Program-made: the position numbers and the translations under genes
Shown here: one piece after another, positions 24,085-63,967 of the stretch
Position numbering within the stretch: position 1 is the first letter of the stretch
Layout of the letters: each line of letters starts with the position of its first letter
Notes under the pieces: model-generated
Seen by the model: only the letters and a program-made list of their open reading frames with translations
Databases searched by the model: none
Told to the model about the DNA's origin: nothing
Assembly: GCA_963806185.1 (NCBI GenBank)
Contig: CAWDXE010000001.1
Span: forward strand, 736,001-800,000
DNA from: an uncultured candidate division Zixibacteria bacterium
Lineage (GTDB): Bacteria; Zixibacteria; MSB-5A5; GN15; FEB-12
DNA length: 64,000 nt
Reading direction: 5' to 3'

Positions 24085-24591
24085 ATGACGCGCTTGATCG
24101 GCTGTTGCATTCTGGCCTTCTTGGTTTGTGGTTTTTCGGTAGACGCCAGGGAGATAAAGCTCAAGAACACTTTCTTCGGGGGATGGAAATACTCTGTCGA
24201 TGGGGGCGACTTTCATAAAGTCGGCTGGACCGGTAAGACGCTTCGACTAGAGATGGAGGACAATCCAGAATCCGTCAAGCTGATTGATTCCTATCGCAAA
24301 TACAATCTCGCTGGCCAGATTATTGGTATACCCGGAGGGTTCTTGGTGGGCTGGGCGGCCGGATCTGCCATCGCCGGCAGATACAAAGACAGCGACAAAA
24401 CCTTACTCACAATTGGTGCTCCGTTGTGTGCCACCAGCATCGTGTTAGAATTGGTTGCGAACGGCAAACTGAAAAAGGCAATCAAAACGTATAACGACCC
24501 GGCCCCGGCAGTAACTCTTCGGACAGATGTTCAGATGCGAACAGTGAACGGTCACGCGACTGGATTTGCAGTACTCGCATTGGGATTCTGA
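24085..24591 (+). CDS. Hypothetical exported/membrane protein
   Basis: RBS ggagga; signal peptide; two hydrophobic segments; upstream TTGACA-17-TAGAGT. Confidence 0.7.
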   Translation: MTRLIGCCILAFLVCGFSVDAREIKLKNTFFGGWKYSVDGGDFHKVGWTGKTLRLEMEDNPESVKLIDSYRKYNLAGQIIGIPGGFLVGWAAGSAIAGRYKDSDKTLLTIGAPLCATSIVLELVANGKLKKAIKTYNDPAPAVTLRTDVQMRTVNGHATGFAVLALGF

Positions 24592-24620
24592 TCGAGTCAC
24601 GAATAACTGCACAACCACCA

Positions 24621-24666
24621 GAAAGCCCGGCACAGGGAGTTGACAATACTCTTGCGCCGGGCTTTC
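24621..24666. terminator. Long GC-rich hairpin, probable terminator between convergent genes
   Basis: gaaagcccggc...gccgggctttc 11-bp perfect outer stem with further inner pairing. Confidence 0.55.
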
Positions 24667-24714
24667 CGTTGAATTGGCACGTGGTGTCGGACCCCCGTGC
24701 CTGACACTATTCCC

Positions 24715-24766
24715 CCAATACTCATTGCGAGGAGCGCTTCCCAGCGCGGCGAAGCTATCTCGAATC
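24715..24766 (+). repeat. REP-like palindromic repeat, copy 1 at the GIY-YIG locus
   Basis: ccaatactcattgcgaggagcgcttcccagcgcggcgaagctatctcgaatc; 49/52 identical to 25207-25258. Confidence 0.9.
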
Positions 24767-24813
24767 TCTTGATCGCCGCTGAACAGTCGCTCTCTGAAGC
24801 CCTTCACTAGTGT

Positions 24814-25104
24814 CTACTTTCCCTCCAGAATCTCCGTGCCCAAATCCTCCCACGTTGGGTTCATCGCGTTCACCAGTGCGATCTTGTCGCTCCGTGATCC
24901 TCCCTTGAGTTGCTTTTCCCGAATAATCGCCTCTCGAAGGTCAGGCGTCTCCTCGAAGTAAACCAGCTTGTATACTCTGTATTTCTGTGTAAACCCGGCG
25001 ATCAACCCCTGTCGATGCTGAAGCAGGCGTGCCCGGATGTTCCTTGTCACACCCGTATAGAGGACGGTGTTTCTTGCGTTTGTAAGTATGTAAACGAATG
25101 GCAT
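24814..25104 (-). CDS. Small stand-alone GIY-YIG nuclease (96 aa, YhbQ/UPF0213-like)
   Basis: FVYIL...LYTGVT..R..QH...FTQKY...LVYFEE...AIIREKQLK...NPTWEDL; the longer ORF-track start (25284) only reads through the repeats. Confidence 0.9.
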   Translation of the reverse strand: MPFVYILTNARNTVLYTGVTRNIRARLLQHRQGLIAGFTQKYRVYKLVYFEETPDLREAIIREKQLKGGSRSDKIALVNAMNPTWEDLGTEILEGK

Positions 25105-25121
25105 AGAACCTCGCAGGCCTT

Positions 25122-25156
25122 GAGATTGCTTCGTCGCTTCGCTCCTCGCAATGAGT
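25122..25156 (-). repeat. REP-like repeat, inverted copy just upstream of the GIY-YIG start codon
   Basis: Reverse complement is actcattgcgaggagcgaagcgacgaagcaatctc: same arms as the direct copies with a shorter loop. Confidence 0.9.
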
Positions 25157-25206
25157 CCTTTGAGACTTCGACGTAGCCTCATGCCCCCGTGGGTCAAACC
25201 ACTAAG

Positions 25207-25258
25207 CCAATACTCATTGCGAGGAGCGCCTCCCAGCGCGACGAAGCAATCTCGAATC
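25207..25258 (+). repeat. REP-like palindromic repeat, copy 3 at the GIY-YIG locus
   Basis: ccaatactcattgcgaggagcgcctcccagcgcgacgaagcaatctcgaatc. Confidence 0.9.
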
Positions 25259-25508
25259 CCGCTACAACCTGAGACTCTCCCCACGCTCCCATTACTCTAT
25301 GGGAGTAGGTATAGTGTGTTTGTCCCGAGAGAATCTCCACCCCCCCACTGACACCTGCAGTCAGTCAAAATCGTCACATTTACCCCCCACTTGACTTATC
25401 CACAATAATTGCCGTTCTTGTCGCCAACCTAAAACGTTTCCTGATACCGTCCCGGTGGGAAATCCTCGCTCGCGCACAACTGCGCTTCGGACAGTTTCAC
25501 GAACAACT

Positions 25509-26789
25509 ATGAAAGACCACATGACAGCAGCTAAACTGTCCCCCGCCGGATTCTCCGGCCTCGGTATCGCTCCCGGCCTCATGGCCGCCATCGCTCGCCT
25601 CAACTTTGTCGAGCCCACCGCCGTCCAGCGCAAATCGATTCCGGTCGGTCTAGAAGGCAAGGACGTTATCGTCATCGCTCAAACCGGCACCGGCAAAACC
25701 CTGGCTTACGGCATCCCCCTCATTCAGCGCCTCGCCCAGATCAAGGGGCGCGGCCTCGTCCTGCTTCCCTCGCGCGAGCTGGCCATCCAGGTTGACGAAG
25801 CCCTCAAGTCGGTCGGCAAAGCCGTCGGCATGCGCTCGGCCCTTCTGATCGGCGGCGCCTCGATGAGTCTCCAGCGCACCGCCCTGTTGAAGCGTCCGCG
25901 CATTATCATCGCTACCCCGGGCCGATTGCTCGACCATATGCAGCATCGCACAGTTGACCTCACCGACGTTCGCATCCTTGTGCTCGACGAAGCCGACCGG
26001 ATGCTCGACATGGGCTTCGCCCCGCAGATCAATCGTGTGTTCGACGTAGTCCCAAAAGATCGTCAGACCATGCTTTTCTCGGCCACTATGCCGGGTGAAA
26101 TCGTACACATCGCGCAAAAGCGGATGAAACTTCCGATCCACGTCGAAATCGCACCGCCGGGCACAACCGCTGATAGAGTTGAACAGGAAGTCTTTTTCGT
26201 CGATCGCGAGAATAAGACCAGCCTGTTGGAAATCCTCTTGAAGGAATCTCCCGGCTCGACTCTTGTGTTCACCCGTACCAAGCATGGCGCTCGCAAGCTG
26301 ACACGCTCAGTGAAGAATATGGGCCACTCCGCCGCGGAACTCCACTCCGACCGCACCCAGGCCCAACGTCAGGCGTCGCTGGCCGGATTCAAATCGGGTA
26401 AGTATCGCGTATTGGTGGCTACTGATATCGCCGCGCGCGGTCTTGACGTCACCGGTATCGAGATGGTCGTCAACTACGATCTCCCAACCGAAACCGAGAC
26501 CTACGTCCATCGCATCGGTCGCACCGGCCGCGCTGGCCAACCGGGCCGCGCGGTGTCATTCGCGACCTTTGACCAACGCAGCGATATTCGCGATATCGAA
26601 CGCCTGATTCGCACTGCTTTGCCGGTCTCCAAGCTCCCCTCATCGCTCCCGGCGCGCACCCGTCTGGATCGGCCGGAAGACATTCGATCTCAGAATGTCC
26701 CCACGCGTGTTTCACCGCCCAGAGAACAACCGGCCTTCGGCCGCGCCGCTCGTCGCGACGGTTTCAAGAAGCGCCGCCAGATTCGATAG
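25509..26789 (+). CDS. DEAD-box RNA helicase (RhlE-like)
   Basis: Q motif PTAVQ; AQTGTGKT; PSRELA; TPGRL; DEAD; SAT; HRIGRTGRAG. Confidence 0.95.
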   Translation: MKDHMTAAKLSPAGFSGLGIAPGLMAAIARLNFVEPTAVQRKSIPVGLEGKDVIVIAQTGTGKTLAYGIPLIQRLAQIKGRGLVLLPSRELAIQVDEALKSVGKAVGMRSALLIGGASMSLQRTALLKRPRIIIATPGRLLDHMQHRTVDLTDVRILVLDEADRMLDMGFAPQINRVFDVVPKDRQTMLFSATMPGEIVHIAQKRMKLPIHVEIAPPGTTADRVEQEVFFVDRENKTSLLEILLKESPGSTLVFTRTKHGARKLTRSVKNMGHSAAELHSDRTQAQRQASLAGFKSGKYRVLVATDIAARGLDVTGIEMVVNYDLPTETETYVHRIGRTGRAGQPGRAVSFATFDQRSDIRDIERLIRTALPVSKLPSSLPARTRLDRPEDIRSQNVPTRVSPPREQPAFGRAARRDGFKKRRQIR

Positions 26790-26799
26790 ACATGTTATG

Positions 26800-27178
26800 C
26801 GTGGCGCACGTCTCGTGCGCCACGTTGTCCTTTTCCCCTGCCACATCATCACAAATCGTCATGCTGAAGCCGATTCAAATCGGCCTTCAGCATCTGCGTG
26901 TCCACCGAACTTTCGAACATGTCATTGAGAGGCTCACTTCCCCATAGATGTCATTGCGAGGCGCGCTTCGCGCCGTGGCAATCTTTCAGTTCACTTCACG
27001 TTGTCCGTCACCCTTCGCCTCCGCTCAAGATGAACTACGTCGAAGTGCGACTGTACAATTGCTTCCCCGCCCTCACCCCAACCCTCTCCCTGAAGGGAGA
27101 GGGAGCATAGATGCGTACCCCAGAGGTCACCGATTGACGAAGTGTATCTTGAGCAAAGCCGAAGGGCTCAGGCTGACA
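26800..27178. repeat. Mosaic cluster of at least five different short palindromic repeat units (BIME-like)
   Basis: Hairpin units at 26800-26824, 26857-26895, 26949-26992 and 27069-27103, plus an inverted pair at 27011-27035 and 27145-27178; four unit types recur at 63780-63967. Confidence 0.85.
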
Positions 27179-27212
27179 CAAGTGAATTCAACTTTAGCTT
27201 GAGAATGGGAAA

Positions 27213-28244
27213 TTAGAACCCAATATGCAGCGCTTTGATCAGGTAGAAACACCCCGCTGCAATCAACCCCGCCGCCGGAATCGTCAAAAGCCACGCCCAC
27301 ACGATGCGTTCCGCTACACCCCACTTGATTCCCGATAACTTCGTAGTACTGCCAACACCGATAATGCCGCCCGTTATCGTGTGCGTTGTGGAAACCGGAA
27401 TACCAAAATGAGTGGCACCGAAAAGCGTGAGTGCCCCGGCGGTCTCAGCACAAAAGCCGCCCACCGGCTTCAGCTTCGTGATCTTCATTCCCATCGTCTT
27501 GACTATCCGCCAGCCGCCCAATGCCGTGCCGACACCCATCGCCGCGTGACACGATAAAATGATCCAAAGCGTGTTCCACTCGGTGAGCGAAAGCTGGGTC
27601 CCTGGCCGCATCATGCCCCCGGCAATGAGCAGGGCCATGATAATGCCCATCGTCTTCTGCGCATCATTGCCGCCATGTCCCAACGAATATAGAGCCGCGG
27701 AGAATAACTGTGCCTTGCGAAATATCTTGTCTACTTCGGTCGGACGATACCTCCTGAACAGCCAATAAACTCCCACCATAATGGCGAAACCGAGCACCAG
27801 TCCAATGAGCGGCGCGAGCGGAATAAACTTGACCGTCTTCCAGATATTCTCCCAGTGAATGACGTCCATCCCCTTGTAGGCAAGACCGGCCCCGGCCACG
27901 CCGCCGATCAGCGCGTGCGACGAACTGGTCGGCAAGCCAAGCCACCAGGTGATCAGATCCCAGACTACTGCCCCCAACAATCCCGCGAGTACAACATACA
28001 CGTACACCGTGTCGGTGCCGTCTATCTGTACAATCTTCGCAATCGTATCGGCTACACGTGGCGCAAAGATGAACATCGCCACAAAGTTGAAAAATGCCGC
28101 CCACAGCACCGCCACACGCGGGCTGAGCACGCGCGTCGAGACAACTGTTGCTATCGAATTGGCCGCATCGTGAAACCCGTTGATCACGTCAAAAACCAGC
28201 GCGACGCCGACTGTACAAACGACTACAATCTCAACGGAACTCAT
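27213..28244 (-). CDS. pit: PiT-family inorganic phosphate transporter
   Basis: NGFHDAANSIAT, GLPTSSSHAL, HGGNDAQKTMG, GIPVSTTH. Confidence 0.95.
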   Translation of the reverse strand: MSSVEIVVVCTVGVALVFDVINGFHDAANSIATVVSTRVLSPRVAVLWAAFFNFVAMFIFAPRVADTIAKIVQIDGTDTVYVYVVLAGLLGAVVWDLITWWLGLPTSSSHALIGGVAGAGLAYKGMDVIHWENIWKTVKFIPLAPLIGLVLGFAIMVGVYWLFRRYRPTEVDKIFRKAQLFSAALYSLGHGGNDAQKTMGIIMALLIAGGMMRPGTQLSLTEWNTLWIILSCHAAMGVGTALGGWRIVKTMGMKITKLKPVGGFCAETAGALTLFGATHFGIPVSTTHTITGGIIGVGSTTKLSGIKWGVAERIVWAWLLTIPAAGLIAAGCFYLIKALHIGF

Positions 28245-63779: not shown

Positions 63780-63967
63780 CGTCATCCTGAATCATTCTTA
63801 TGATTCAGGACCTCAGTGTCCACCGCTCTCTCGATCACGCCATCGCGAGGCGCGCTTCGCGCCGCGGCGATCTTTCAGTTCGTGGTTGGCGTACGTCTCG
63901 TGCGCCGACTGATCCTACGGGCCCTCACCCCAGCCCTCTCCCGTGCTATACACTCCCTGGGAGAGGG
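63780..63967. repeat. Second mosaic palindrome cluster, sharing four unit types with 26800-27178
   Basis: Units at 63780-63825, 63838-63881 (39/44 identical to 26949-26992), 63882-63909 and 63921-63967. Confidence 0.85.

Follow-up and report, generated by a model that had tools for sequence, protein, structure and literature searches.

The closest described relatives of the locus reported here are the Ssn family of single-stranded DNA (ssDNA) nucleases (Chenal et al. 2025, Nat Commun, PMC11893778), GIY-YIG proteins of 94 aa within cd10448 (GIY-YIG_unchar_3) whose genes are flanked by NTS/SRM hairpins. The Neisseria meningitidis homologue, SsnA, was shown to cut such repeats as ssDNA: it binds the hairpin only in single-stranded form and cuts a few bases upstream, in a Mg-dependent reaction restricted to ssDNA and to one strand of the repeat. 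How well it cuts is set mainly by the three bases that precede the palindrome, where changes mainly reduce cutting. In N. meningitidis, SsnA lowers the integration of transforming DNA. The text of that paper gives SRMs at only 71% of the homologues, counts Azospirillum lipoferum 4B among the 29 genomes defining the family and draws a parallel with REP-associated transposases in its Discussion, as a hypothesis only. A second related group is formed by the CGTC-tagged REP families CGTC-1 to -4, which include Neisseria dRS3 and Rickettsia RPE-4/RPE-6 and are described as lacking a dedicated transposase (Di Nocera et al. 2013, PMC3733652).

We analysed a 64,000-nt stretch (the window) of the genome of an uncultured candidate division Zixibacteria bacterium, labelled G000 in coordinates, for which the original prediction had proposed a small GIY-YIG gene as the possible enzyme of the palindromic repeats around it, in a RAYT-like system using a different nuclease fold. 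The gene itself, paralogue A (Table 1), was confirmed: its product carries PF01541 (E 6.7e-17) as the sole Pfam domain, with no second domain, and its predicted structure (model pLDDT 94) matched GIY-YIG folds, while no NCBIfam model matched the protein. The SsnA reference in our alignments was the N. gonorrhoeae homologue, the protein assayed in PMC11893778 being the meningococcal one. Paralogue A aligned to it without gaps at 46% identity over 92 of 94 residues (E 1e-28 in the pairwise alignment, E 1e-18 in a 7.3-Gb database search), and the three residues needed for SsnA cutting are intact in the alignment. With the gonococcal protein as stand-in, paralogue A falls within the homology rule of PMC11893778 (E<1e-10, >75% coverage) and below the stricter 60% identity-to-SsnA filter, which that paper uses as a secondary filter only. 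In a quick tree of 96 rows (SH-aLRT support, no bootstrap), it grouped with the gonococcal SsnA homologue and the A. lipoferum 4B protein, apart from the YhbQ-like outgroup; the Ssn clade (92 rows, against four YhbQ/UPF0213-type outgroup rows) had an SH-aLRT support of 89. By its sequence, the gene belongs to the Ssn family of ssDNA nucleases published in 2025, a known system. PMC11893778 already describes this family, links gene and repeats and draws the comparison with REP transposases, so the earlier headline of a RAYT-like GIY-YIG system is not new. An extension of the gene to 156 aa from a GTG start, running through the repeats, was rejected because most homologues are 92-104 aa long. A phage collection gave only ten distant Rhizobium phage matches.

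The fold is shared with YhbQ/UPF0213 and Slx1-type GIY-YIG proteins (PDB 1zg2 and 6seh; Foldseek probability 1.00), and the PDB matches included no solved Ssn structure, the best being the UPF0213 protein 1zg2. This best match would suit a generic structure-specific nuclease of the YhbQ/UPF0213 type, with the repeats as incidental terminators or RNA stabilisers, but such a reading is scarcely credible. By sequence, the match to 1zg2 is weak (E 0.0013, against 1e-28 for SsnA), identity to YhbQ/UPF0213 and Slx1-type proteins is ~30%, and the tree places paralogue A on a separate branch from the YhbQ-like rows. A promoter and terminator scan of 24550-25520 found no site, and the flanking pattern recurs across phyla, while none of three YhbQ/UPF0213-type loci examined had inverted tagged hairpins on both sides.

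Paralogue A is flanked on both sides by oriented, tagged hairpins whose tags point outward (copies 1 and 2), with a third copy beyond (Table 1). The 49/52 identity noted in the original prediction between the blocks 24715-24766 and 25207-25258 was reproduced by alignment, as was the inverted copy upstream of the gene, which matches copies 1 and 3 perfectly over 17 nt in inverted orientation. In all three copies, A-CTC precedes the ATTGC stem. Whether sequence conservation extends 5' from the tag as far as the cut site was also considered; the idea was dropped, as the flank varies beyond the A at -1 (30/32 copies). The decayed element between copies 2 and 3 extends the direct repeat of copies 1 and 3 to 88 nt at 80% identity. 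Genome-wide, the unit count proposed earlier gave 37 exact matches of TCATTGCGA-N8-38-GCAATC, compared to none for the reversed control pattern, and filtered repeat copies numbered 81, compared to one in a Markov-1 control genome. With standard DNA parameters, the three gene-flanking copies fold no better than shuffles (z -0.68, +1.99 and +0.05). Their interior is purine-rich, and the purine-rich interior of such copies may form non-standard G-A pairs. We read the repeats as hairpins because of the compensatory outer-stem change in 51 of 53 copies of the G-tagged sister class (26 T-A, 25 C-G) and because of their variable, self-complementary inner arms. Rfam returned no family at 24500-27300, only two chance lncRNA matches. 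Nearby, a 168-aa ORF at 24085-24591 has a signal-like N-terminus and no Pfam or NCBIfam match, and a 19-nt inverted repeat that follows it (24616-24671) faces the cassette.

Table 1 Genes and repeats of the locus, with the Ssn-like paralogues of the same genome (positions are those of the window unless a contig is given)
Feature	Position	Strand	Remarks
Ssn-family single-domain GIY-YIG nuclease gene by sequence (paralogue A)	24814..25104	-	96 aa; Y5, Y16 and E63 correspond to SsnA Y6, Y17 and E64; flanked by CTC-tagged TTGC repeats, 32 genome copies
CTC-tagged hairpin, copy 1	24720..24761	+	downstream of gene, tag outward; one stem mismatch (GCTAT)
CTC-tagged hairpin, copy 2	25122..25156	-	upstream on coding strand, tag outward; ends 17 nt before ATG
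CTC-tagged hairpin, copy 3	25212..25253	+	tag-to-tag with copy 2
Hairpin of a separate dispersed repeat family	24684..24707	-	back-to-back with copy 1; 12 genome copies
Decayed relative of the 24684-24707 hairpin	25171..25206		between copies 2 and 3
GTC-tagged hairpin, paralogue-B class	26950..26983	+	not paralogue A's class
Degenerate paralogue-B-class copy	63839..63872	+	tag GCC, ATCGC/GCGAT stem
Paralogue B	G000:C7:1009895-1010185		68% identical to A; GTC-tagged TTGC repeats with GTGGC arm, 55 genome copies
Paralogue C	contig C1		58% identical to A; ATTCCGG stems, 21 genome copies
Paralogue D	contig C6		45% identical to A; classical SRM-matching repeats, 36 genome copies

Similar to the published Ssn loci, the cassette consists of a single-domain GIY-YIG gene (94-96 aa in the family) whose product aligns without gaps and keeps the catalytic Tyr/Tyr/Glu, set between inverted, oriented and tagged hairpins with a C after the stem; the repeats are also dispersed outside genes, and gene and repeat are associated across genomes. 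It differs from them in its hairpin class, which combines an ATTGC outer stem with a purine-rich internal loop and a variable inner hairpin: none of the 47 genome-wide matches of the published SRM pattern lies at this locus, and none of the 27 TTGC-class loci matches that pattern. Further differences are the CTC tag, where the published loci have GTC, a protein signature typical of the TTGC class (TN..TV and KGGSR in place of AS..GT and KKWNR), and the presence of four Ssn-like paralogues with four classes in one genome. The CGTC-tagged REPs of PMC3733652 share with this class an unpaired GTC-type tag, a stem starting with A-T pairs, a short tail and the occurrence of dimers and clusters, but have stems of 8-9 bp and loops of 4-5 nt, whereas the outer stem here is 5 bp and encloses a long, variable interior. 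The string ATTGCGA was absent from the supplements of PMC3733652; the consensus list in its Figure 2 lay outside this comparison, and overlap with one of the four families is possible. In a literature search that covered text (figures and subscription papers aside), PMC11893778 was the only paper found on Ssn, and none printed the TTGC motif as a repeat. RAYT/TnpA-REP systems with GTAG REPs and REPINs likewise place a small nuclease gene between inverted, tagged palindromes found across the genome, and action on ssDNA hairpins, taken over from SsnA, would be a further likeness. The fold sets the two apart, as paralogue A is a GIY-YIG protein without an HUH motif (only PF01541 was found, PF01797 being absent). 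HUH enzymes become linked to DNA through a tyrosine and are able to rejoin strands, whereas only cleavage has been shown for Ssn.

In a second comparison, homologous loci were evaluated for flanking repeats, with 88 of 98 loci with a long match retained after dropping identical proteins, weak matches and cut flanks. An outward-tagged hairpin was found within 200 nt in 51 of the 88 loci and on both sides in 29; of 516 control windows, which were not intergenic-matched, 23 and 27 scored, counted per strand. The detector used here missed copy 2 at paralogue A. Outward orientation exceeded inward orientation both upstream (38 vs 17) and downstream (42 vs 12). Repeat class and protein also co-varied: the 27 TTGC rows required 7 changes on the protein tree against a shuffled mean of 24.0, and the 23 classical-class rows 7 against 20.9, with none of 500 shuffles as low in either case, for class labels that were set after seeing the loci and that leave 30 of the 96 rows unlabelled, some of them missed by the pattern. 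The TTGC rows form a grade on this tree rather than one clade. Ssn matches are patchy in the phylum (149/285 genomes) and were present in 54 of 65 genomes with at least 20 TTGC repeats, compared to 95 of 220 with fewer, in counts that ignore kinship. Among the 285 genomes, ten with at least 30 repeats have no Ssn match at E<=1e-15; a profile recheck of five of these returned one broken gene and four only weak matches. The broken gene (G025:C9:41764-42041) consists of two overlapping pieces with internal stops, in a genome with 74 TTGC repeats. Overall, the enrichment in the flanks, the tracking of the protein tree by repeat class and the more frequent presence of the gene in repeat-rich genomes support the earlier proposal, and the hairpins around the gene very likely have the GIY-YIG protein as their cognate enzyme. 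Among the loci compared, one Ssn cassette, on a Planktothrix plasmid, separates the MmeI-like gene of a DISARM locus from drmA (L072:1489-1773), and another lies between sufB and sufC of Azospirillum lipoferum (L071:1486-1779). A further record, NZ_CP119140.1 (L070), is a 2.17-Mb N. gonorrhoeae sequence filed as a plasmid although chromosome-sized.

Four Ssn-like genes were found in the Zixibacteria genome, each between its own hairpin class (Table 1). The repeat copies at 26949 and 63838, which the original prediction had counted as diverged members of the gene-A family, turned out to be of the paralogue-B class, a separate subfamily with a G-tag and a GTGGC/GCGGC-type 3' arm. The two TTGC subfamilies are split by tag and 3' arm, with a CGAA arm in 27 of 30 CTC copies and in none of 56 GTC copies. 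The classes nevertheless co-cluster, as 17 of the 32 CTC copies have a repeat of another class no more than 500 nt away, where the random mean is 1.8. Such co-clustering would be expected if RAYT-like HUH transposases of this genome, or host repair, had spread the repeats, with the Ssn genes only riding along in repeat-rich intergenic hot spots; the hairpin of another family back-to-back with copy 1 and the presence of six Y1_Tnp (PF01797) genes in the genome, all away from this locus, fit the same idea. However, none of the six has a CTC, B, C, D or E repeat within ~500 nt, and a single class per Ssn gene, in fixed outward orientation and following the protein tree, argues against this route, which we regard as very improbable.

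Other repeat arrangements were observed in the same genome, where 23 mixed clusters comprise three or more repeats. Within the window, 26859-27170 is an intergenic mosaic that follows a DEAD-box helicase gene and contains a GTCATGCTGA-type hairpin, a CCCTCACCCC-type hairpin (of which there are 9 in the genome), a half and a full B-class copy and a 31-nt pair in inverted orientation (27011-27041/27136-27166). Four tandem 111-nt units at G000:C7:890147-890516 each carry an ATTCCGA-stem hairpin intermediate between classes B and C. At G000:C5:47756-48420, a YhbQ-like GIY-YIG gene that falls outside the Ssn clade (38% identity) is followed by two GTCACCCTGAGC-type hairpins in inverted arrangement, a class with 17 genome copies. 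The core of this hairpin forms the inner stem of the commonest CTC subfamily (inner sequence identical in 12 copies, or 16 counting near variants; G000:C5:9552-138959 and others), which is therefore a nested or chimaeric repeat; three copies of this subfamily lie ~290 nt apart at C5:9552-10176. At G000:C5:189737-189990, a small GIY-YIG gene sits directly behind a tRNA-like sequence and is followed by a second copy of its 3' end, which looks like an integration footprint.

The tag distinguishes this genome from its relatives. The body ending in GAAGCAAYC occurs here in 25 CTC copies and no GTC copy, whereas, across the 284 other genomes of the phylum, GTC copies total 2,048, spread over 124 genomes, and CTC copies 5, each in a different genome. 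Counted by prefix, the 32 CTC copies lie on five contigs, 29 of them away from the gene, and the 30 that were parsed contain 16 different inner hairpins with one tag; 23 of these 30 have the stem base AC instead of AT, unlike copies 2 and 3. The tag position governs cleavage in SsnA and hardly varies elsewhere; here it has changed throughout one body type and also in the three copies around an intact gene. A changed preference of the enzyme, which would now hold or copy CTC, accounts for this most simply. Points against it are the differing stem base of those 23 copies and the incompleteness of the assembly. Judged from the repeats, the switch likely means that the target preference of the enzyme changed along with them. 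Copying of one founder by a different route would likewise leave a uniform tag. The tag change could not be traced clearly to any one residue, as only I23L passed the threshold; R21 and D73 of paralogue A are rare in the TTGC class but lie in variable columns, and G69 is found in 92% of the TTGC-class rows where 95% of the classical rows have W. The closest relative in the protein search was 64% identical (among 89 matches), and thus these matches offer no second CTC-flanked orthologue that would replicate the pairing of enzyme and tag. In viral contigs, a single match of the CTC pattern lay inside a 476-aa ORF, at a locus with no GIY-YIG-like ORF, and was taken as chance.

With fair confidence, we propose that paralogue A is an Ssn-family nuclease predicted to bind its flanking hairpin as ssDNA and to cut a few bases 5' of the tag, with a specificity that likely shifted from GTC to the CTC tag of three neighbouring and 29 dispersed copies. 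By analogy with SsnA, the cut would be hydrolytic. The expected sites near 24716 (+), 25160 (-) and 25208 (+) would border the cassette on either side, on opposite strands, and would also lie in the stretch separating copies 2 and 3. Cutting would presumably occur when these strands are single, during replication, repair or DNA uptake, and could limit or steer recombination at the marked loci, while the preference of the enzyme would keep the tag constant across copies.

Alternatively, the CTC tag could represent escape or self-protection, in which the enzyme still wants GTC and its own flanks are resistant, with the CTC copies uncut and piled up or owned by an unassembled paralogue. This reading gains from the finding that SsnA mainly cuts less well when the three bases preceding the palindrome are altered (PMC11893778), from the difference at the stem base between most dispersed CTC copies and the gene flanks, and from the stem mismatch in copy 1. 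The assembly is also 82% complete, so that an unassembled paralogue could own the dispersed CTC copies. However, other Ssn genes, including the three paralogues in this genome, keep GTC flanks, so self-protection is not generally needed; moreover, this body type never carries GTC in the genome and would offer such an enzyme no target, and all catalytic residues of paralogue A are intact. We consider escape improbable, and paralogue A is likely a specificity variant that cuts CTC-tagged ssDNA hairpins.

Beyond cutting, and in addition to this explanation, the nuclease might replicate its repeats, with a nick 5' of the tag starting copying or insertion, which would make Ssn the missing dedicated enzyme of the CGTC-type REPs. 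One dispersed class per paralogue, a tag switch fixed in every copy of one body type and matching the gene flanks, the patchy distribution of the gene and cassettes inside otherwise coherent operons (sufB-sufC, MmeI-like/drmA) are in line with such a role. Against it, no direct repeat or target duplication was found flush with the tags outside the terminal hairpins at paralogue A or at 59 other cassettes, where the longest shared words were distributed like the control, and the repeats persist in genomes without an intact gene. GIY-YIG chemistry is moreover hydrolytic, with no covalent intermediate for rejoining strands, and we know of no rejoining chemistry for this fold. We consider replication by the nuclease possible but rather unlikely. 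The fuller version, in which Ssn proteins read and propagate hairpins as the long-missing enzymes of the CGTC-type REPs, the enzyme and a whole repeat family switched from GTC to CTC, and one genome harbours four orthogonal nuclease-repeat replicators, appears doubtful to us. In four sequencing runs, only repeat-sized and short fragments were found at the cassette, with no joint across it; none of the runs listed shares half of the words of the locus, and there was no RNA run among those listed. Tandem partial duplications of flank, tag and 5' arm in 18-23 nt units were also observed, with five in a row before paralogue D (G000:C6:151085-151200), as were half CTC copies with a full GTC copy immediately behind them; these are listed together at L033, L045, L007, L025, G000:C7:73362 and C1:198922. 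Such duplications and half copies could reflect slippage at hairpins or a nicking footprint.

Taken as a specificity variant, paralogue A offers a natural experiment, since a tag position that is almost invariant elsewhere (2,048 GTC to 5 CTC) is fully switched in this genome (0 to 25), and paralogue B, 68% identical and with GTC-tagged repeats, provides a built-in control. With this pair, tag reading by an enzyme of 96 aa becomes open to test, as does the spread of the repeats by such an enzyme, which PMC11893778 offers as a hypothesis. If paralogue A is CTC-specific, this Ssn protein would be an orthogonal ssDNA-cutting tool.
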